Shown piece after piece: positions 7,023-50,221 of a stretch of DNA of 64,000 bases. The stretch's first letter is position 1, and each line of letters starts with the position of its first letter. The notes beneath the pieces were generated by a model. The model was not told the DNA's origin, made no database searches, and worked only from the letters and a program-made list of their open reading frames with translations. Origin of the DNA: an uncultured Rhizobium sp. (GTDB lineage Bacteria; Bacteroidota; Bacteroidia; NS11-12g; UBA955); contig CAZGQS010000002.1 in NCBI GenBank assembly GCA_964527775.1, positions 105,701-169,700 on the forward strand. Direction: 5' to 3'. The position numbers and the translations under genes are program-made.

Positions 7023-7703
7023 ATGATTCTCGTGATTGAGTCCTCGGCTGATTACCCATCGGTTTGTTTAACGGACGAACAAGGTAATTTGTTGTGGAGC
7101 GAAACGGTTTTTGTGAAGCAATCGCATTCTGAGCAACTCCCATTGTTGGTGGAGAAAGCGTTTTTAAAGTTGAGGGGTGAGGGTGGAGAGTTGAGAGCGG
7201 TGGCGGTGAATGAAGGTCCGGGCAGTTATACGGGTTTGAGGATAGGGGTGAGTTTGGCAAAAGGAATTTGCTATTCCATGGGATGTAAACTATTGTCAAT
7301 TAATGGATTGGTTGCAATGTCGGAGTGGGCCATTGATCAAAGATATTTAGGTGAGGGTTCAGTTTGCGCCATGCTTGATGCACGTAGAGATGAGGTTTAT
7401 ATTGCCATTTTAGATTATCAAGGGGAGGTTATAAAAGAGGTTGAGGCTTTGGTTTTAACCGAAGGATGTTTAGATGGACTGATAGATTTAAATGCTACAG
7501 TGTTCATTGGAAATAGCGGAGAAAAGGCACAAAGATTATTGTCTGCACCTGAAGCGAAAATCATTGATGGACCCGAAGCTCATATGTTTGCAAAGAAAGC
7601 TGCCCAGAAATTTAGGAATGGTGAATTTGAAGATGTTGCTTATTTCGAACCCCATTATTTAAAGGAATTTATTGCAGGGATATCTCAAAAATTTTCGGTT
7701 TGA
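7023..7703 (+). CDS. tsaB: tRNA t6A37 threonylcarbamoyl transfer protein TsaB
   Basis: MILVIESSADYPSVCL...NEGPGSYTGLRIGVSLAKG is the TsaB/YeaZ signature. Confidence 0.88.
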   Translation: MILVIESSADYPSVCLTDEQGNLLWSETVFVKQSHSEQLPLLVEKAFLKLRGEGGELRAVAVNEGPGSYTGLRIGVSLAKGICYSMGCKLLSINGLVAMSEWAIDQRYLGEGSVCAMLDARRDEVYIAILDYQGEVIKEVEALVLTEGCLDGLIDLNATVFIGNSGEKAQRLLSAPEAKIIDGPEAHMFAKKAAQKFRNGEFEDVAYFEPHYLKEFIAGISQKFSV

Positions 7704-8314
7704 TAGGGTTTATTGAAAATTTTGATTCTTTCAGTTACAACTTGGTGCATTATTTGCGCAAAGGTGGAGTTGAAGTGATGATTTTTGAGAATCACGAATT
7801 GTTGTTGAGGTGGCAAGAATTGGAAAAGTGTGATGCCTTTCTTATAGGTCCAGGTCCTAATGAACCTGAAAATTCAGGAGATTTAATGGTAATAATGCCG
7901 CAGTTGGTTGATTTGAAAAAGCCCATTTTAGGTGTCTGTTTGGGACATCAAGCATTGGGACAGTTTTTTGGATGGGAATTGCGGAGAGCAAAGTTTCCCG
8001 TTCATGGAAAATCATCGGTAATTTCTCATAAAGATATAGGGCTATTTAAAGGATTACCTCAGCAGTTGCAAATAGGTCGGTATCATTCTTTGGTGGTTGA
8101 TGATACTGAAAGTTCTGATGTTGGATTTTCGTATTTGGAAGTTTTAGCCAGGGCGGAGGACCATGAAATTATGGCCTTTCAGCACAGGTATGAGTCTATT
8201 TTTGGAGTTCAATTTCACCCTGAGAGTGTTTTAACACCGCATGGTCAAGAATTAATCAATAACTGGTTGAGTTTAGTAAGAATGGAATCTACGTCGAAGC
8301 CTTCGTCTTCTTGA
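7700..8314 (+). CDS. Glutamine amidotransferase component II of anthranilate/aminodeoxychorismate synthase
   Basis: IENFDSFSYNLVHYL, GVCLGHQALG (catalytic Cys) and FGVQFHPES (His/Glu). The TTG start overlaps the tsaB stop (TTGA). Confidence 0.85.
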   Translation: MIGFIENFDSFSYNLVHYLRKGGVEVMIFENHELLLRWQELEKCDAFLIGPGPNEPENSGDLMVIMPQLVDLKKPILGVCLGHQALGQFFGWELRRAKFPVHGKSSVISHKDIGLFKGLPQQLQIGRYHSLVVDDTESSDVGFSYLEVLARAEDHEIMAFQHRYESIFGVQFHPESVLTPHGQELINNWLSLVRMESTSKPSSS

Positions 8315-10050
8315 AGTTCGGCAATACTGCCATGCGCAGGGAAATGATCTTGTATACCTAGATGGTGAAATCTAGGATTCAATGGGTTAGACGGATTGTT
8401 GTCCCATTTTTCCCATAAATATTTAAAATATTGACCAAATCCTCCAATGATGCTACCGTCTTCAATAGTTATGCAATGTTGGTAGTTCTTTTTTTGAATA
8501 AAAGGAACCTCTGTAGCGTGTTTCACCGCTGGAAAGTGAATGAGATCTACATGGTTGAACAATTCAGGTTTTTTCTCTAGAGCGGTTATAGCCAATTGTG
8601 TGGCAATACCCGTGGTACTAATTAAAATCTTTGGATTGCTTGATTGGTGGATGATTTTTGGCTCAGTTGGGTTGGCAAGAAGTTTATTTTGAGCTTGAAT
8701 TGGTGTTTCACCTCTAGGGTATCTAATGAAAACAGGATGGTTTTGTTCAAGAGCCCAATGCATCATGTTTCTAAGTTCTGATGATTGATAGGGTGCGAGT
8801 ATAGTTATATTGGGCAGAGGCAGAAGAAAAGATAAATCAAAACTTCCGTGGTGTGTTGGGCCATCCTCGCCAACGAGTCCTGCACGGTCAATGCAAAAAA
8901 CCACGGGCAGGTTTTGTAGTACCACATCGTGGATGATTTGATCATAAGCGCGTTGCAGAAAAGTGCTGTAGATATTGACAACTACTTTTTTGCCTCCTGC
9001 GGCTATTCCCGCGGCAAAAGTGACTGCATGTTGTTCGGAAATCCCCACATCAAAAAATCGATCTGGATATTTTTCCAAAGTTGGCAACATGCCACATGAG
9101 CTAGGCATGGCAGGTGTAACTCCCCGTAACTCTTGATTGCTGTTTGCCAATTCGAGCAGGGTTTCACCAAAAATGTCTTGCCATTTGGCCATTGGTCTTT
9201 GGTCTTTGGTCTTTGGTTCTTGGTCTTTGGGGGATGGGTGATCAACTTTGATGTATTTGGCGGCGCTATGCCAGCGGGTTTGTTCCTTCTCTGCGGGTTC
9301 ATATCCTTTCCCTTTTATAGTTTGAATATGAATTAGATGAGGTTTGTTCTGGGAAATGGCTTCTTTCAATGTTTTCTTAAGGACTCCAATATCATGTCCA
9401 TCAAAAGGTCCATGATAAATAAATCCAAACCATTCAAAAAATTCTCTGATCTGTTTAGGATGTTTATTTTTTTGTAGGTGAACCAAATGTTTATTCAATG
9501 CACCGGTATTGGGATCAATACCCATTTGGTTGTCATTGAGAATTACAACCAAAGGATAATTCAAATCAATCATGTTGTTCATAGCCTCATAGGCCATGCC
9601 ACCGGTGAGAGCTCCATCGCCAATGATGGCGAATACTGGAGGTCTAGTTTGATTGTATTTTAGGGCTTCTGCAAATCCTACAGCAGCAGAAAGCGCGGTA
9701 GATGAATGTCCGGTCCCAAACCAATCAAATGGAGATTCGCTTCTTTTGGGAAAGCCCGAAATGCCGTTTTTATTTCTAATGTTTTTAATTTCATCACCAC
9801 GGCCAGTCAGAACTTTATAGGGATATGATTGGTGCCCAACATCCCAAATTACTGGGGAAAATTCAGGGTCAATTTCTGACAGGAGAGCCACTGTCAATTC
9901 TATGACGCCAAGGTTTGCTGCAAAGTGACCGCCATTTTCAAGAATGGTATTTATGAGGAAATTTCTTAATTCTGCCGCAACCAAAATTAGTTCTCCCACA
10001 GGCATATTGCGCAGTTCTTGATATTGGCTATACTTTGAAGGAAGCGGCAT
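8245..10050 (-). CDS. dxs: 1-deoxy-D-xylulose-5-phosphate synthase
   Basis: GGHFAANLGVIELTVAL, WDVGHQSYPYKVLTGR and IGDGALTGGMAYEAMNN (TPP motif). Full length at 601 aa. The interdomain linker is encoded by heptamer repeats (see the repeat feature). Confidence 0.95.
   Translation of the reverse strand: MPLPSKYSQYQELRNMPVGELILVAAELRNFLINTILENGGHFAANLGVIELTVALLSEIDPEFSPVIWDVGHQSYPYKVLTGRGDEIKNIRNKNGISGFPKRSESPFDWFGTGHSSTALSAAVGFAEALKYNQTRPPVFAIIGDGALTGGMAYEAMNNMIDLNYPLVVILNDNQMGIDPNTGALNKHLVHLQKNKHPKQIREFFEWFGFIYHGPFDGHDIGVLKKTLKEAISQNKPHLIHIQTIKGKGYEPAEKEQTRWHSAAKYIKVDHPSPKDQEPKTKDQRPMAKWQDIFGETLLELANSNQELRGVTPAMPSSCGMLPTLEKYPDRFFDVGISEQHAVTFAAGIAAGGKKVVVNIYSTFLQRAYDQIIHDVVLQNLPVVFCIDRAGLVGEDGPTHHGSFDLSFLLPLPNITILAPYQSSELRNMMHWALEQNHPVFIRYPRGETPIQAQNKLLANPTEPKIIHQSSNPKILISTTGIATQLAITALEKKPELFNHVDLIHFPAVKHATEVPFIQKKNYQHCITIEDGSIIGGFGQYFKYLWEKWDNNPSNPLNPRFHHLGIQDHFPAHGSIAELQEDEGFDVDSILTKLNQLLINS
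9192..9230 (-). repeat. GACCAAR heptanucleotide tandem repeat (5.5 units, 39 nt) inside the dxs reading frame
   Basis: Plus strand reads TTGGTCT TTGGTCT TTGGTCT TTGGTTC TTGGTCT TTGG, which is the reverse complement of the GACCAAR units. It is translated within PKDQEPKTKDQRP. The unit family is the same as at 38941-39003. Confidence 0.9.
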
Positions 10051-24323: not shown

Positions 24324-25295
24324 ATCAAAACTCTTGATATCCTCCGAATTTTGGTTGATCAACCAACCCACAGTTAACATGTATGGGGTTGAAGATTGGG
24401 GCGCGAATTCTGGGAAATTCTGATTTACGAGAATATTCGCTTGCAATCTTCCATAAAGGTTTTTTCTTAACCATTCTAGTTGAAGGAACAAAGCTTGAAT
24501 ATTACCGCCGGTTGTCGTAACGACTTCGCCATAAGAGAAGTCTGGACCGAATTGTTGAAATTGATATCCGAGCATTGGCAACAAGATGGTTTTTTTTAAC
24601 GTGAATGATTTGCCTAATCCTGTGCGCAACATACCGTTGCTTCCCTGCTGATATTTAAGCTCATTTTCAAAATTATACAGCATAGATAATTGAACATTAC
24701 AGCTCCATCCTTGATAAAAATAGCCATACAGAGCTTGTGCGCCCATTGAATAAGATCCATTTCCAGGCTGTAGATTCATGGGTAGTAATCTTTTATAGGC
24801 ATCTCTCAACTGGTAATGTCCGTTCGGAATCTTTATTTGGGCAGAAGCAATTGCGAGTTGTTTGGTTTTGCCAAGGTTAAATTTTCGGTTATCTACAAGG
24901 GTGTAGTTTAGCGCTATATTTAAATCTGATAAACCCGAATATGTATTAATGGCGTTTTCGTTGTTCTCATTTTTTCTTGATATCTGTTGGATGCCCATTC
25001 GGTAGTTGATTTGAAACTTCTTATTTACTTGTTGATTGAAAATAATTCCCGATTGGAGGATTTTATCGGTAACATTAAATTGGGTGCCATTTGAGAAGCC
25101 CGTTTGTGTTTTGAATCCCAGTGAATTACCCCAAATTCCGAGGAAATGTGAGGGTATAGTCTGTAAATATCCCATAGAAAAAGAAGCGTCTCGAAGTCCG
25201 CTACCACAGATGTCGCAGGCACTGGCTTTTGCAGAAGCGAACATTAATGTGATAAAAATGAGTGGCTTATGGATTGAATGGATGAATTTCGCCAT
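24321..25295 (-). CDS. Putative outer-membrane beta-barrel protein with an N-terminal CxxC motif
   Basis: Signal peptide ...MFASAKASA is followed directly by CDICGSG. The rest shows alternating hydrophobic, Gly/Tyr/Asn-rich barrel-like composition. It is the last gene of the MbnP/MbnH-type cluster and overlaps it by 29 nt. Confidence 0.6.
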   Translation of the reverse strand: MAKFIHSIHKPLIFITLMFASAKASACDICGSGLRDASFSMGYLQTIPSHFLGIWGNSLGFKTQTGFSNGTQFNVTDKILQSGIIFNQQVNKKFQINYRMGIQQISRKNENNENAINTYSGLSDLNIALNYTLVDNRKFNLGKTKQLAIASAQIKIPNGHYQLRDAYKRLLPMNLQPGNGSYSMGAQALYGYFYQGWSCNVQLSMLYNFENELKYQQGSNGMLRTGLGKSFTLKKTILLPMLGYQFQQFGPDFSYGEVVTTTGGNIQALFLQLEWLRKNLYGRLQANILVNQNFPEFAPQSSTPYMLTVGWLINQNSEDIKSFD

Positions 25296-26271
25296 GATTT
25301 AGATTGGAAATAAATTTGTGGTCAGTTAATGTGTGCAAAAATGCCCTAAGGGCTTCAACGTCTTGATTTTGTAGCTGAAATTTAAGTTGATAGGCATTTA
25401 AAACTTTATCAAGATTGGAAAATGAGCCGTCATGCATGTATGGGTAAGTGAGTGCTACATTTCTCAAGCTCGGCACTTTAAAGTGGTAGGTGTCTTTTTG
25501 TATTTGTGTAATACGGTATCTTCCCTGATCGCTGTTGCCTAAAGCTAAGCCATTGTATTCAAATTGATTATTGGTAAATAGTGGTTCAGAATGGCATTGG
25601 GAACAGTTTGATTGAAAAATGGTATAACCTTGTTTTTCTAGTTTATTGAAATTGCTTTTTCCTCGCCTTACATCATCATATTTACTTTGGTCAGAAACAA
25701 GGCTGAGCATGAATTGAGAAAGTGCAAAAAGTACTGTTTGCTCATTGATGGTGGTATCACCATAGGCTTTCTGAAAAAGAGGATGGTATTGTTTGTTTTC
25801 TCTGATGCGCTCAATGGCTATTCCCAGGGGTAAATCCATTTCATTGAAATCAGTGATTGGGGCGATGGGCATAACATCTAAATGCGTTATTCCGCCATCC
25901 CACATGAAAGATTTGTTCCAAGCTAGATTTTGAATGGATGGACTGTTTCGCTTGCCCAATCGATTGTGAACCCCAAAACTTTTTGGTAAATTATGGTCAG
26001 CAAAACCATGAACTTGGGCATGACAACTTCCACAGGAAATGGTTCGCGTGGATGAAAGATTTGGGTCATAAAAAAGAACTTTTCCTAAATATATTTTATC
26101 AGGGGTTAACTCATTATTGGTGTTTTTGTATTCTATCGCTGGGAAGTCTTTTGGAAATTTAAATTCTGCCGATGAGGGATTTTTTTGGCAACTACCCAAA
26201 TGAAGGAACAGAACCAAGACAAATATCTTGGTTCTGCCCCACATAAACCCTTTTGAATTAAGGGAGATCAT
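25267..26271 (-). CDS. mbnH: Di-haem cytochrome c peroxidase family protein (MbnH/MauG-like)
   Basis: Two CXXCH haem motifs (CGSCHAQ and CSQCHSE). VPSLRNVALTYPYMHDG is typical of the CCP/MauG family. A lipoprotein-like signal is present, and ATG 26244 is an alternative start. Confidence 0.8.
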   Translation of the reverse strand: MISLNSKGFMWGRTKIFVLVLFLHLGSCQKNPSSAEFKFPKDFPAIEYKNTNNELTPDKIYLGKVLFYDPNLSSTRTISCGSCHAQVHGFADHNLPKSFGVHNRLGKRNSPSIQNLAWNKSFMWDGGITHLDVMPIAPITDFNEMDLPLGIAIERIRENKQYHPLFQKAYGDTTINEQTVLFALSQFMLSLVSDQSKYDDVRRGKSNFNKLEKQGYTIFQSNCSQCHSEPLFTNNQFEYNGLALGNSDQGRYRITQIQKDTYHFKVPSLRNVALTYPYMHDGSFSNLDKVLNAYQLKFQLQNQDVEALRAFLHTLTDHKFISNLNHGEIHPFNP

Positions 26272-26276
26272 TGGAG

Positions 26277-27056
26277 TTATTGGTGAATATGGTCAAAGGT
26301 GATGCCGTCTCTGAAGTTGGCCGACATTGAAACGGATAAATTGCTGATGCTATGTACTACGCTAACATCGGCTAACTTCACTGGGCCATGCCATAGTTTC
26401 GCTACGTTGGTTCTAATATGTAGCACGGGCGCTGCGTCGGGTTTTACAGAAATACTGTTTCCACCGAGAAGCATGTTTTTCTTTTGAATAGCGCTGTATG
26501 GGGGCATATAGCCACCAAGATGAAACAAGAAAGTATTATTTGCCGCTTGAGGCGAAGTGCCTTCTACACGAACAAAAATGTAACCTGTTGACCAGCTCCA
26601 GAACATTCCATTTGATGGATTGAGTGCGCCTTGTTGCAGTCCGCTATTGTTAGCTGCACTGTCAACACCTACTAAGAAATTAACTGCAGTATAATCGCCC
26701 ATTGGAATGTTCGTCAGTTCGATTTTATTGTCAGTTTCACTTATCAAGAAATAGGAGTTGGGGACTTTAAATGATGAGCCATCTGCCTTGATCAATTCAA
26801 AATTGGATAAATAATATTTAATAAGACTGAAGGTCATGGTATCGCCAGACATTGGCTGAACCATGGGAGTGTTCATTAGAAAAGGTTTTTGATCCATGCC
26901 CCAAACATGGTCTATTTCAATGGTTAAATTTCCGTATTTCGGAGTGTTATTAGGTTTGTCTTCTTCAGTACATGAAGCAAAAAATATGGGTAATGCAATT
27001 AGGGTCAAGGCCGCCCAACGAGTAGCACGAGACAACCAAAGAATGGTGTTTTTCAT
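26277..27056 (-). CDS. mbnP: MbnP-family putative copper-binding lipoprotein
   Basis: Lipoprotein signal ...IFFASC. LTIEIDHVWG...FSLIKYYLSNFELIKADGS matches my recollection of the MbnP family. It sits directly upstream of a di-haem peroxidase, the canonical MbnP-MbnH pairing. Confidence 0.65.
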   Translation of the reverse strand: MKNTILWLSRATRWAALTLIALPIFFASCTEEDKPNNTPKYGNLTIEIDHVWGMDQKPFLMNTPMVQPMSGDTMTFSLIKYYLSNFELIKADGSSFKVPNSYFLISETDNKIELTNIPMGDYTAVNFLVGVDSAANNSGLQQGALNPSNGMFWSWSTGYIFVRVEGTSPQAANNTFLFHLGGYMPPYSAIQKKNMLLGGNSISVKPDAAPVLHIRTNVAKLWHGPVKLADVSVVHSISNLSVSMSANFRDGITFDHIHQ

Positions 27057-27112
27057 GATTTTTTCATTTTAGAGTGCCAATGAATGACCCGTCATTAGCG
27101 CGGGGATCCTGA

Positions 27113-27517
27113 TCATGAAAAATTCTTTGGTGGAGGTGGGTCAATTGCTTCTAGGTCGAAAAAGTGTGGTGCAATATTTCTAGATTTAGAAATTAAACAA
27201 GAGAAAGAATGGTTATCAACGAGATTATTAATAATGGTTTCTTTGAATACTTCGGGGAAGATAACCACTGGTTGAGCATCTGTTTCAGTGGATTCTTGAG
27301 GTTTTGAGAATTTCAATTTTGCGTTAATATGGCAAGAACCTTGGCAACAGTTTTTAACAGCGTCTTTTTGAACACAACTGGTTTTTATAATCTCGGTTTT
27401 GTTTATTTCAAAATGAACAATGTGAAATAACTGTATGAGACTTTGGGAGAAAAAAGCAATCAATAAAATTGAGGCAAACCGAATAACCAGATTCTGATAT
27501 GAGTTCCTCAATGCCAT
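27113..27517 (-). CDS. Small membrane-anchored Cys-rich protein
   Basis: One TM helix (IRFASILLIAFFSQSLIQLF), then C-x8-CC-x3-CH (SCVQKDAVKNCCQGSCH), and a C-terminal DPPPP. It may belong to the Bacteroidota HYC_CC_PP family, which I could not verify. It is the first gene of the MbnP/H cluster. Confidence 0.55.
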   Translation of the reverse strand: MALRNSYQNLVIRFASILLIAFFSQSLIQLFHIVHFEINKTEIIKTSCVQKDAVKNCCQGSCHINAKLKFSKPQESTETDAQPVVIFPEVFKETIINNLVDNHSFSCLISKSRNIAPHFFDLEAIDPPPPKNFS

Positions 27518-27521
27518 AATA

Positions 27522-27529
27522 CAAATTTA
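27522..27529 (-). promoter_or_regulatory. -7 box TAAATTTG, 4 nt before ATG 27517 (leaderless candidate)
   Basis: Minus strand reads TAAATTTG-TATT-ATG. Confidence 0.55.
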
Positions 27530-27566
27530 ACTAAATCCCTTTGTTTAAAGCATGATATTTGTCACA

Positions 27567-28211
27567 TTAGTACTCCAATTTTAGTCCGTATTTTCTCATG
27601 GCCACATCAATCAGGTATTGGCGTCTGCGCGCCAAAGGGTGATTTTTACCGCAGGTTCTTGGACAAGGGAGCATAGAGATGATGGCAATGCTTTGAGAAC
27701 GGGAAAGTTCTTTGCCGTTTTTGTTGTAGTAATAGTGGGCAGCTTCGTCTATGCCGAAAGCACCTCTTCCCATTTCGATAACGTTTAAATAAACCTCTAG
27801 AATGCGTTTTTTACCCCAAATGAGTTCAATCCAAAGAGTGTAGTAGGCTTCAATTGCTTTTCTTAGGTAACTGCGTCCCTCCCAACAGAAAACGTTTTTG
27901 GCCGTTTGTTGAGAAATGGTGCTGCCGCCCCTGATTCGTTTGCCTTGTGCATTGTGTTTTACGGCGTTGGAAATGGCCTTGAAGTCAAATCCGCTATGAT
28001 TGAAAAACTGTTGATCTTCACCAGCCAAAGCCGCTAATTCAAAATGATCAGGCATTTCTTCAACATCAATCCATTCGCCGTCATAGGTGTGAAGTTCTCT
28101 CTGAGACCATTGAATCATGGTAAATGGTGGATTGATCCATTTGTACAGCACTACGGGCAGAATGCTTATGAGCCAAGCTGTTAAGAGGATTTTAAAAATG
28201 CGCCTAATCAT
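27567..28211 (-). CDS. mtgA: Monofunctional biosynthetic peptidoglycan transglycosylase
   Basis: GT51 motifs AGEDQQFFNHSGFD, RGGSTISQQTAKN and RKAIEAYYT. N-terminal TM anchor. Confidence 0.9.
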   Translation of the reverse strand: MIRRIFKILLTAWLISILPVVLYKWINPPFTMIQWSQRELHTYDGEWIDVEEMPDHFELAALAGEDQQFFNHSGFDFKAISNAVKHNAQGKRIRGGSTISQQTAKNVFCWEGRSYLRKAIEAYYTLWIELIWGKKRILEVYLNVIEMGRGAFGIDEAAHYYYNKNGKELSRSQSIAIISMLPCPRTCGKNHPLARRRQYLIDVAMRKYGLKLEY

Positions 28212-38798: not shown

Positions 38799-38803
38799 GT
38801 TGT

Positions 38804-38901
38804 CGGTGATCGGTGATCGGTGATCAGCCGTCAGCCGTCAGCTCTCAGCTTTCGGCTTTCAGCTATCAGCGGACAGCCGTCAGCCATCAGCTTTCAGCAG
38901 C
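38804..38901. repeat. Heptanucleotide tandem array: (CGGTGAT)x3 followed by 11 CAGCYNT-type units
   Basis: 14 consecutive 7-nt units in one phase: CGGTGAT x3, CAGCCGT x2, CAGCTCT, CAGCTTT, CGGCTTT, CAGCTAT, CAGCGGA, CAGCCGT, CAGCCAT, CAGCTTT, CAGCAGC. Confidence 0.95.
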
Positions 38902-38940
38902 GCCGAGGGCGCCAAGCAACAGCGAAGCTGTTCAGCTCCC

Positions 38941-39003
38941 GACCAAGGACCAAAGACCAAGGACCAAGGACCAAGGACCAAAGACCAAAGACCAAAGACC
39001 AAG
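38941..39003. repeat. Heptanucleotide tandem array (GACCAAR)x9
   Basis: Units in order: GACCAAG, GACCAAA, GACCAAG x3, GACCAAA x3, GACCAAG. The array ends 3 nt before the stop codon of the UbiA-family gene. Confidence 0.95.
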
Positions 39004-45805: not shown

Positions 45806-45924
45806 CGGTGATCGGTGATCGGTGGTCGGTGGTCAGCCGTCGGCTTTAGGGTGCAGGCTGTCAGCTGTATGCTATTCGCTTTGGTCTGATAACCGATAAC
45901 CGATCACCGATCACCGATCACTGA
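45806..45924. repeat. Heptanucleotide composite repeat with inverted arms (17 phase-locked units, long hairpin)
   Basis: Units in order: CGGTGAT x2, CGGTGGT x2, CAGCCGT, CGGCTTT, AGGGTGC, AGGCTGT, CAGCTGT, ATGCTAT, TCGCTTT, GGTCTGA, TAACCGA x2, TCACCGA x2, TCACTGA. The right arm is the reverse complement of the left arm (about 26 of 28 positions pair, counting G.U). Confidence 0.92.
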
Positions 45925-47034
45925 TTACAACACCTCGCTAACAGGCGTGTAAGGAAGGTTGAATGCTTGGCTAACGCCTTCGTATACTACTTTGCCTTCA
46001 ACAACGTTGAGTCCTAGGCGGAGGTCAGCGCTGTCAGCGCAAGCTTGTTTCCATCCTTTGTTTGCCAATTGAATGGCGTAGGGAAGGGTTGCGTTTGTTA
46101 GGGCAAGGGTTGATGTATATGGAACTGCGCCAGGCATGTTTGCTACACAGTAGTGAACTACACCGTCAACCACGTAGGTTGGTTCAGCGTGAGTGGTTGG
46201 TTTTGAGGTTTCAAAGCATCCTCCTTGGTCAATGGCAACGTCAACAATGACAGAGCCAGGGCGCATGGTTGATAGCATGTCTTTGGTGATTAATTTTGGA
46301 GCTTTTGCACCTGGAATCAATACGCCACCAATGACTAGATCTGCGGTTTTTACAGCTTCGCGAATGTTATAATCATTGCTGTATTGTGTTTTTACGTTTG
46401 CAGGCATGATATCGTCAAGTTGACGTAAACGGTTAAGGCTAAGATCCATGATGGTTACATCTGCGCCAAGGCCTGCGGCCATCTTTGCAGCTTGAGTTCC
46501 AACTACCCCACCTCCTAAAACTACCACATTTGCAGGTTTAACACCAGGTACGCCACCCAAAAGGATACCGCGTCCGCCCATAGGTTTTTCAAGGTATTTT
46601 GCGCCTTCTTGGATACTCATACGACCAGCAACTTCACTCATTGGAATCAACAAGGGTAAGGTTCTGTTCACTTCAACGGTTTCATAAGCCAAGCAGATGG
46701 CTCCGCTTTTGATCATTGCGTGGGTCAAAGGCTCGTAAGATGCGAAATGGAAATACGTGAACAATAATTGTCCGGCACGAATCAAAGAATATTCCAATTC
46801 AATGGGTTCTTTAACCTTAACAATCATTTCGGCGATGCCGTACACTTCCTCAATGGTTGGGAGTAGGTTAGCCCCGGCTTTGGTGTATTCCTCGTCAGAG
46901 AAACCACTGCCTAATCCGGCGGTTGATTGAACATAAACTTTGTGTCCATGTTTTACAAATTCACTTACTCCAGCAGGAGTTACTGCAACGCGGTTTTCGT
47001 TGTTCTTGATTTCTTTAGGTACCCCGATTATCAT
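45925..47034 (-). CDS. ald: Alanine dehydrogenase
   Basis: [23 protein letters not shown] and [22 protein letters not shown] (NAD). Full AlaDH-like sequence. ATG 47034 is chosen because ATG 47055 lies inside the -7 box. Confidence 0.93.
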
Positions 47035-49045: not shown

Positions 49046-50221
49046 TTATTTTATGCCGTCTTGGTGAATCATCACAGAAATGGTCTTGTAAAGAAAGTAT
49101 GGCTTGCTCACAAAAATGTAACCGTTAAGATTATTAACCGTTCCCCAAGAATTTTTGACCAAGTAGTATTCCACGCCCGTGTTTTTTTCTTTGTAAAGTC
49201 CTACTATATGCATGCCGTGGTCATCGGTGGTTTGTTGAGCGTCAAAAGCCTCTTGTCTAATTTCTTGTGTGATGGATTTTTGCTCACACGGTGTGGTGAA
49301 GGCGTTGCTTTTTCTCTCGGCACCTGCATTGTTGAATTGTTTGTTATCTTGACCTTCTTTTTTGATGAGAGAATCATGGATGGGAACAAGGGCAATGCCG
49401 TCTCTGAAGCTAAATCCTTTTTCGCTAACATCAGCAGCCCACGCCACAGAGATCCCCTTTTTCAAGGCCTTGTCTACCGCTTGAGTCATTTCATTGAGGG
49501 GTAGGTTTTCAGCCATTTGCATGGACCAGTTATCGGGGACTTCAATAGCAAATGGTTGATAGAAAGGGTGATGGGTGAAGCTGGTGTATATTTTGTATTG
49601 ATTTTGAATCAAGTCTAATGATTGAGCGAATGATTGAGCGTTGTAGTTTTTACCGCGATAAGTAAATTCAGATGGGATTCTTCCGAGATAGGCGTCTAAA
49701 ATACCATTGATGGCTCCAATCCATTCAGTGCCTATTTTACCTGATGGTTGTTTGACTACGGTTTCTACTACCGATCTCAAGACTGCTATCAATTCTGAGT
49801 GATCATGACGGGTTTTGCCGTTGATTAATCCTGAATAAACTTCGTCGGGAACAATGCCGTATTTAGAAATGATGTAGTTGATATCATGTGCTTCGCCACC
49901 CTCGTCAAATTGGTGTTTCCCAGCCATTCTAACATAGGTAATGGCCTTTTCAACATAGGCGCAGCGGGCAATATACATTTCGCTGAGGTCGTGATTGCCT
50001 TTGTTTTTGCGAATAAGATCAGATTCAATGAGGGAAAGGGTGGAATAGCTCCAACACGTGGCAGTTTTACATTGATCTTTCACTTTGGTGTTTTCGACGT
50101 GAGAGATTTTTTCAAATAAGTATGCGCTTCCCTCTTTGTTGGTATTGAATTGACCAAAGGCGGGAACGAAAAAACATCCCCCGAAAATCAAAGAAACAGA
50201 GGTAAAATTGAACCACTTCAT
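49046..50221 (-). CDS. C1 family cysteine peptidase (aminopeptidase C / bleomycin hydrolase-like), secreted
   Basis: Signal MKWFNFTSVSLIFGGCFFVPAFGQ. Catalytic Cys context QCKTATCWSYS, distal DHGMHIVG (His) and KNSWG. Confidence 0.8.
   Translation of the reverse strand: MKWFNFTSVSLIFGGCFFVPAFGQFNTNKEGSAYLFEKISHVENTKVKDQCKTATCWSYSTLSLIESDLIRKNKGNHDLSEMYIARCAYVEKAITYVRMAGKHQFDEGGEAHDINYIISKYGIVPDEVYSGLINGKTRHDHSELIAVLRSVVETVVKQPSGKIGTEWIGAINGILDAYLGRIPSEFTYRGKNYNAQSFAQSLDLIQNQYKIYTSFTHHPFYQPFAIEVPDNWSMQMAENLPLNEMTQAVDKALKKGISVAWAADVSEKGFSFRDGIALVPIHDSLIKKEGQDNKQFNNAGAERKSNAFTTPCEQKSITQEIRQEAFDAQQTTDDHGMHIVGLYKEKNTGVEYYLVKNSWGTVNNLNGYIFVSKPYFLYKTISVMIHQDGIK

Follow-up and report, generated by a model that had tools for sequence, protein, structure and literature searches.

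The stretch of DNA analysed here (the window) comprises 64,000 nucleotides (nt) of contig CAZGQS010000002.1 and carries on its minus strand the gene dxs, which encodes the enzyme DXPS (synthase of 1-deoxy-D-xylulose 5-phosphate; here also Dxs). Within the open reading frame (ORF) of dxs lies a tandem array of the 7-nt unit GACCAAR (Table 1), which had been pointed out in a first-pass annotation made from the sequence alone. The minus strand from 9230 to 9192 reads CCAAAGACCAAGAACCAAAGACCAAAGACCAAAGACCAA, matching the sequence given there exactly, and the run is translated in frame as ...HPSPKDQEPKTKDQRPMAKW... between RWHSAAKY and WQDIFGE. Tandem Repeats Finder (TRF) delimited the array at 9184–9230, with a period of 7 and 6.7 copies. 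The array core (9193–9231) encodes P274–P286 (PKDQEPKTKDQRP), and the degenerate last two units, ACCAATG and GCCAAAT, reach into M287–W290. Searching the window for GACCAARGACCAAR with at most one mismatch gave 12 matches, compared to 0.10 expected from shuffled sequences. All 12 belonged either to the dxs run or to the nine-unit intergenic array at 38941–39003, in good agreement with the earlier view that the two belong to one unit family.

The heptamer array in dxs and its site in the enzyme

As 7 and 3 share no common factor, it takes three heptamers to complete a 21-nt unit of seven residues (K-T-K-D-Q-R-P), and the three frames of one strand all yield the same cyclic heptapeptide. The frame arithmetic of the first-pass annotation, by which only changes of three units keep dxs in frame, is correct. 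The GACCAAR unit contains no stop codon in any frame of either strand, and its coding-strand reading is hydrophilic and contains proline. In the dxs arrays the variant units ACCAACG and ACTTACG occur at every third position, producing a 21-nt higher-order period.

The identity of the host gene was supported by several lines of evidence. In a phmmer search of the PDB, the product matched the solved DXPS chain 8a8y_A (E = 5.7e-130, residues 9–596) and the E. coli DXPS structure 2o1s_A (E = 6.9e-127), and the dxs gene calls on public contigs are annotated with the Pfam domains DXP_synthase_N, Transket_pyr and Transketolase_C, which represent the three-domain architecture. An AlphaFold2 (AF2) model of Dxs had a mean predicted local distance difference test score (pLDDT) of 86 and a predicted template modelling score of 0.89. 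In an alignment of 105 Dxs sequences (A1), the columns of H42, H73, G144-D145-G146, H261, E339, R367, D396 and H400 were invariant. The ratio of nonsynonymous to synonymous divergence (dN/dS) of dxs without the array was 0.03–0.13 in every pair tested. Based on these ratios and on the catalytic residues in invariant columns, dxs is, as judged from its sequence, a functional gene under strong purifying selection.

The array follows directly on the region coding for the mobile spoon/fork segment, whose positions are given here only relative to E. coli Y288, F298, H299 and F304. Alignment to E. coli DXPS equates Y250 with Y288, W260 with F298, H261 with the catalytic H299 (codon 9268–9270) and Y266 with F304. 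The array begins 8 residues past Y266 and aligns with E. coli residues ~307–318, just ahead of domain II. Domain II of the E. coli enzyme reportedly starts at about residue 320. In Mycobacterium tuberculosis DXPS, domain II begins at residue 313 (PMC9068908). In E. coli the four residues are the catalytic histidine and the aromatic cluster of a mobile region, the spoon/fork, that gates the enzyme's open and closed states (bioRxiv 10.1101/2025.10.24.684457). In the AF2 model, pLDDT dropped below 50 at residues 257–283 between flanks above 90, and no secondary structure was assigned over residues 260–286. The alignment and the modelled loop bear out the earlier placement of the run at the linker between Dxs domains I and II, and the site is a tolerant, length-variable loop, predicted to be disordered, just after the catalytic fork motif.

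Array length among strains and origin of the repeat

The protein cluster formed at 90% identity around the window's Dxs contained 14 full-length members of 601, 608, 615, 622 or 629 amino acids (aa); a member listed at 593 aa represents the 608-aa allele, its gene call beginning at a start codon farther in. DNA was examined for eight alleles and for contig L197 of the more distant P0004 lineage, drawn from NCBI, JGI, ENA and Logan contigs. Data sets in which alleles occur include SRR10083275, SRR14288965, SRR23967299, ERZ28594040 and JGI 3300043470. All alleles with DNA were heptamer-phased, with array lengths of 48, 69, 90, 111 and 132 nt, such that the longer alleles equal the window's array plus 3, 6, 9 and 12 units, respectively. 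The expectation that strains would vary only in multiples of three units was thereby confirmed, with five length classes at a spacing of 21 nt.

In a tree built without the array, one sub-clade (98.8–98.9% identity) comprised the window (48 nt), L192 (48 nt) and L191 (90 nt), and a second (97.3–98.5% identity) comprised L194 (69 nt), L196 (90 nt) and genome G023 (111 nt). L198 (90 nt), L195 (111 nt) and L193 (132 nt) stood on separate branches at 96.5–97.4% identity. As several lengths are found within backbone sub-clades, at least five length changes are needed. The array of L191 is 42 nt longer than that of the window at a synonymous divergence (dS) of 0.054, and a single exact tandem copy of ACCAACG ACCAAAG ACCAAAG makes up the difference between L195 and L196. 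Array length is still changing between backbones that are 97–99% identical, which contradicts the 'fossilised' insertion put forward as one option in the first-pass annotation. The dxs array is a live, length-polymorphic minisatellite and not a fossil.

The distribution of the insert was assessed by aligning Dxs from 30 relatives and by searching 41 genomes, including the window's own (G000), for three consecutive GACCAAR units. In 16 of the 19 other species of the same genus that were aligned, the linker was short and non-repetitive, with ~10–13 residues between YVKIQP and KKWQDVFGE, and the ten aligned species of the sister family had non-repetitive linkers of ~12–18 residues. Only four genomes encoded an extended linker: G000, G023, G005 and G024. 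The Dxs of G023 is 92% identical to that of the window and 21 residues longer. Those of G005 and G024 are 80–82% identical, and their inserts, both of 63 nt, are degenerate with mere traces of the 7-nt phase. The same four genomes contained the DNA pattern, with 86 matches in G000, 182 in G023, 11 in G005 and one in G024, and the pattern search found it in none of the other 37. This co-occurrence of repeat and extended linker is complete, and it counts as one evolutionary event because the four genomes form one clade. Comparison with orthologues, proposed earlier as a check, hence placed the repeat-derived linker in this lineage only, in degenerate form in G005 and G024. A KDQ-rich linker written in other codons by relatives lacking the repeat, which the first-pass annotation had named as contrary evidence, was not encountered, the linkers of such relatives being short and unrelated.

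Codon usage provided independent information on what determines the linker sequence. Inside the arrays, Asp was encoded by GAC in 36 of 36 cases, Gln by CAA in 39 of 39 and Arg by AGA in 19 of 19. In the rest of dxs, Asp codons were distributed as 184 GAT to 92 GAC. The share of AAG among Lys codons was 51% inside the arrays versus 15% outside. Since the array codons follow the repeat, it is the DNA repeat and not the peptide that sets the linker sequence. The lineage restriction and the repeat-dictated codons together support the original proposal that the dxs run derives from the dispersed GACCAAR repeat.

Arrays in genes and between genes were contrasted by comparing the 64-kb window with the syntenic G023:C4 stretch, which is 92–94% identical. 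Between G000 and G023, the in-gene arrays differed by 63 nt in dxs and by 84 nt (4 x 21, longer in G023) in the tsaB-like gene that adjoins it, both multiples of 21. In the intergenic composite at 38803–39003, three sub-arrays differed by about +1, +2 and −2 units, G023 having two fewer units at the locus orthologous to 38941–39003, and the composite at 45806–45925 differed by 34 nt through unit turnover. One- and two-unit changes thus do arise in the family where they are unconstrained, while the genes show triple-unit changes only. The contrast, although drawn from a small sample, supports a selective filter, with the 21-nt super-period probably helping.

We found no out-of-frame allele among the 14 full-length dxs alleles. 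When the N-terminal 317 residues were searched against a collection of 5.8 billion proteins, no truncated product closer than 54% identity was recovered. Peptide-pattern scans of metagenome and genome contigs returned only distant Dxs of at most 54% identity, the patterns being too conserved. Two short cluster members were considered as frameshifted alleles and rejected: the 278-aa member P0135 begins 26 nt away from the end of its contig, and a 100-aa member comes from a contig of 1.5x coverage in which a scaffold gap of 64 N falls exactly within the array. The other short members of 278 aa and 170 aa (clusters 1 and 2) were assumed to be similar fragments. In contig L209 (ENA ERZ4200881 NODE_44172, positions ~465–528), which belongs to another related lineage, a scaffold gap of 64 N coincides exactly with the dxs array, which artificially shifts the frame and splits the gene call.

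The dispersed repeat family and comparable systems

The assembly holding the window (2.46 Mb, 39.8% GC, 65 contigs) yielded 470 period-7 rows in a genome-wide TRF run, far above any other period, of which about 65 were GACCAAR arrays. After merging, 272 heptamer arrays of at least three copies were obtained. Only 22 of these were located inside long ORFs, defined by at least 60 open codons on either side, so that the heptamer family is mainly intergenic. The first-pass annotation had called a slippage-driven ON/OFF site in an essential gene surprising, but at least ten conserved enzymes of the genome carry in-frame heptamer arrays. The suggested check of other coding sequences detected such arrays in recognisable enzymes (Table 1), and a PagL-like protein is likewise interrupted by one. 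Where GACCAAR arrays lie within ORFs, all four have the hydrophilic reading D-Q-R-P-K-T-K, and none the hydrophobic complement F-G-L-W-S-L-V.

Table 1 Positions of the dxs array, of related arrays and of pathway genes. Plain coordinates refer to the window; those preceded by a contig label (C) refer to the window's own genome, G000.
Feature	Position	Strand	Basis or remark
dxs ORF	8245..10050	-	601 aa; ORF listing and translation
In-frame GACCAAR array in dxs	9184..9230	-	TRF period 7, ~6.7 copies, unit TTTGGTC
Region coding for mobile spoon/fork segment	9253..9303	-	directly upstream of array; alignment to E. coli 2o1s
Array in tsaB-like gene	7168..7197 (gene 7023-7703)	+	21-nt super-unit AGTTGAG AGGGGAG GGTGGAG; TRF, ORF listing, Pfam TsaD match
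Intergenic GACCAAR x9 array	38941..39003	+	unconstrained comparison for dxs array
In-frame array in M16 peptidase	C12:30531-30663		PKDQRPT x5
In-frame array in OMP (orotidine monophosphate) decarboxylase, PyrF	C13:51065-51104
In-frame array in LpxB	C32:16944-16996
In-frame array in 2-phosphosulfolactate phosphatase	C34:692-738
In-frame array in FtsX/MacB-type permease	C27:24581-24672
In-frame array in ComEC	C30:9652-9754
HMG-CoA (hydroxymethylglutaryl-coenzyme A) reductase / PdxJ matches	C5:21588-22694, C7:13049-14110, C6:93808-94503

Several side observations were made on neighbouring or related features. The products of the tsaB-like gene on public contigs measured 223, 226 and 240 aa. Convergent genes overlap by 70 nt at 8245–8314, where dxs on the minus strand meets a glutamine-amidotransferase gene on the plus strand (7700–8314), and this overlap is also present in the gene calls of all public contigs examined. 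Two segments of the window, 24359–27567 and 49121–50204, have no counterpart in the collinear G023:C4 stretch and represent strain-specific indels of ~3.2 kb and ~1.1 kb. Elsewhere in the genome, a 362-aa ORF at G000:C1:88379 combines a SpoU-type methyltransferase domain (residues 25–167) with an array at residues 205–227 and stays open through the array into a Cys-containing C-terminal part. It may consist of two genes fused by the stop-free repeat, or it may be an artefact of reading ORFs from stop to stop.

The 7-nt unit, tandem order, dispersal, intergenic bias and polymorphism of the GACCAAR array in dxs are features of two described classes of prokaryotic repeats, the short tandemly repeated repetitive sequences (STRR) and the long simple sequence repeats (LSSR). 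Cyanobacterial STRR heptamers have the units CCCCAGT, TTGGTCA and CAACAGT. The complement of the dxs unit, YTTGGTC, shares TTGGTC with the second of these, and both families form short tandem arrays genome-wide. The host of the dxs array is, however, a member of the Bacteroidia and not a cyanobacterium, and we point to this likeness without claiming common descent or transfer. Heptanucleotide LSSR of prokaryotes are mainly intergenic (Mrazek et al. 2007 as summarised in PMC4679880; PMC4692102) and resemble the dxs array in their 7-nt tandem units, in having many loci per unit, in being under-represented in ORFs and in strain-variable unit number. The literature stresses units that are triplet multiples in genes, whereas the non-triplet unit in dxs persists through three-unit blocks.

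Intragenic heptanucleotide repeats are also known from Haemophilus influenzae, with AATTTTG in hmw1A and AACAACC in the gene for an HI1369-like TonB-dependent receptor (PMC2651432). As in dxs, the ORF contains a 7-nt repeat and goes out of frame when a single unit is gained or lost. In H. influenzae, however, frameshifted or truncated strains are seen and the products are surface or uptake proteins, whereas the dxs alleles are all in frame and encode a metabolic enzyme. Loop inserts have been described in DXPS itself, namely the low-complexity regions of Plasmodium falciparum (PMC11300867) and the disordered variable loops of bacteria (PMC9068908). They are similarly lineage-specific, disordered and tolerated with function retained, but neither an origin from a dispersed DNA repeat nor length polymorphism between close strains is known for them, and they are located within domain I rather than at the domain I/II junction.

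Pathway context and interpretation

No match to dxr (PF02670), ispG (PF04551) or ispH (PF02401) was found in the G000 genome, which is estimated to be 93% complete. The genome did contain two matches to HMG-CoA reductase, one of them in a 791-aa open frame, and a full PdxJ. Thus, the companions that would place Dxs in the methylerythritol phosphate (MEP) pathway were absent from the matches, which leaves its membership of the enzyme family unaffected. Most likely, as gene content indicates, Dxs supplies 1-deoxy-D-xylulose 5-phosphate (DXP) to PdxJ for vitamin B6 (pyridoxal phosphate), and isoprenoids are derived from mevalonate. ThiG gave only a weak partial match (25 bits), and the control search was positive in all 14 control genomes, so that a thiamin role for Dxs is not claimed. 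The description of dxs as essential accordingly needs qualification: selection clearly acts on the gene, but with dxr, ispG and ispH unmatched and HMG-CoA reductase and PdxJ present, how essential it is may hinge on the supply of B6.

Taken together, we consider it very probable that the dxs run is a live in-frame minisatellite of STRR/LSSR type, stemming from the dispersed GACCAAR family and tolerated as a variable linker. The array would have arisen, or been seeded, in the surface linker between Dxs domains I and II, in an ancestor shared by a small sub-clade of the genus, with its 21-nt unit read as a disordered tether. Units would be gained and lost continually by replication slippage or unequal recombination; changes of one or two units would destroy the enzyme and be removed by selection, so that only changes of 21 nt would survive. 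Point mutations marking every third unit would have created the 21-nt period, which may favour in-frame slippage. The outcome would be a loop whose length varies among strains from 13 to 41 residues, neutrally or nearly so, and which is not a switch. In sister lineages, where the repeat family is largely lost, the insertion would have decayed to an ordinary non-repetitive linker. Of the earlier interpretation, the repeat origin, the tolerant linker and the three-unit steps are thus retained; fossilisation, ON/OFF switching and the element of surprise are not.

Some observations weigh against this interpretation. A KDQ heptamer array occupies the same dxs site in the P0004 lineage, which is only 76% identical over the searched region (residues 200–400); it may be homologous or may have arisen independently. 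The intergenic control consists of two composite loci in two genomes. The allele evidence comes from consensus assemblies and gene-call look-ups, which are biased against frameshifted alleles. Finally, neutrality is assumed, and with the array tethered to the catalytic fork motif, its length could affect gating.

The reading of the array as a contingency locus, in which single-unit slippage would turn dxs OFF and ON and give rise to B6-auxotrophic subpopulations, draws on real features. In anatomy, a non-triplet repeat within an ORF matches the phase-variable intragenic heptanucleotide repeats of H. influenzae (PMC2651432), intergenic arrays of the GACCAAR family do change by one or two units, and with no MEP genes found the need for dxs may be only conditional, through PdxJ and vitamin B6. 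We nevertheless regard it as very unlikely. Contingency loci are recognised by in-frame and out-of-frame repeat numbers among strains, but all 14 full-length alleles, across five length classes, were in frame, and no truncated product was closer than the 54% given above, the fragments examined being due to the end of a contig or to a gap of 64 N. The dN/dS values indicate continuous selection for function, and dxs is a housekeeping enzyme gene rather than a surface or restriction-modification gene. The ON/OFF site suggested in the first-pass annotation is therefore not supported, although rare OFF cells would still be compatible with consensus assemblies. One ancient insertion that has since stopped changing would fit the degenerate, non-repetitive remnants of equal length in G005 and G024; for the window's lineage it is refuted by the 42-nt difference at ~99% backbone identity and by the five length classes, and we hold it to be extremely improbable. 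There is practically no chance that the length classes are mis-assembled repeats, although in one low-coverage ENA contig an N-gap coincides exactly with the array. No array exceeds 132 nt, the same alleles were recovered from independent NCBI, JGI, ENA and Logan assemblies (that of 601 aa two times, that of 608 aa from four members, including the 593-aa call), and the frame is kept at every length, unlike in random mis-assembly.

Selection could also act on linker length itself, if the tether between the fork motif with its catalytic histidine and domain II sets open/closed equilibria or stability. The closeness of the array to Y266 (E. coli F304), in the spoon/fork region that gates catalysis, and the coexistence of several length classes among closely related strains speak for such adaptive tuning. 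It is an unlikely explanation, however, as length was associated with neither clade nor habitat, the insert was left to decay in sister lineages, and similar arrays in many unrelated enzymes argue for a mutational by-product. Moreover, Plasmodium DXPS showed the same activity after one of its low-complexity inserts had been truncated (PMC11300867). Because the array lies close to the catalytic fork, a rheostat-like variant is kept alive, in which the array tethers the spoon/fork (H261) to domain II and its 21-nt polymorphism shifts the open/closed gating of DXPS. This seems quite unlikely; if true, coexisting strains would have heritably different fluxes of DXP, and with it of vitamin B6, driven by slippage but not in an on/off manner.

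New in the account of dxs as host to a tolerated minisatellite are the allele series in 21-nt steps, the perfect co-distribution with the genomic repeat family, the evidence from codon usage, the decay seen in sister species and the corrected pathway context, in which Dxs appears to serve B6 synthesis beside the mevalonate pathway in this lineage. The locus is a natural example of a non-triplet DNA repeat entering a strongly conserved enzyme and persisting there. By passing only 21-nt changes, selection would make a protein minisatellite of seven residues out of a microsatellite of 7 nt, and the decay in sister lineages would represent one route by which lineage-specific disordered linkers come about. 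In DXPS, the site after the catalytic fork tolerates 13 to 41 extra or variable residues, which is useful for construct design and for studies of gating.

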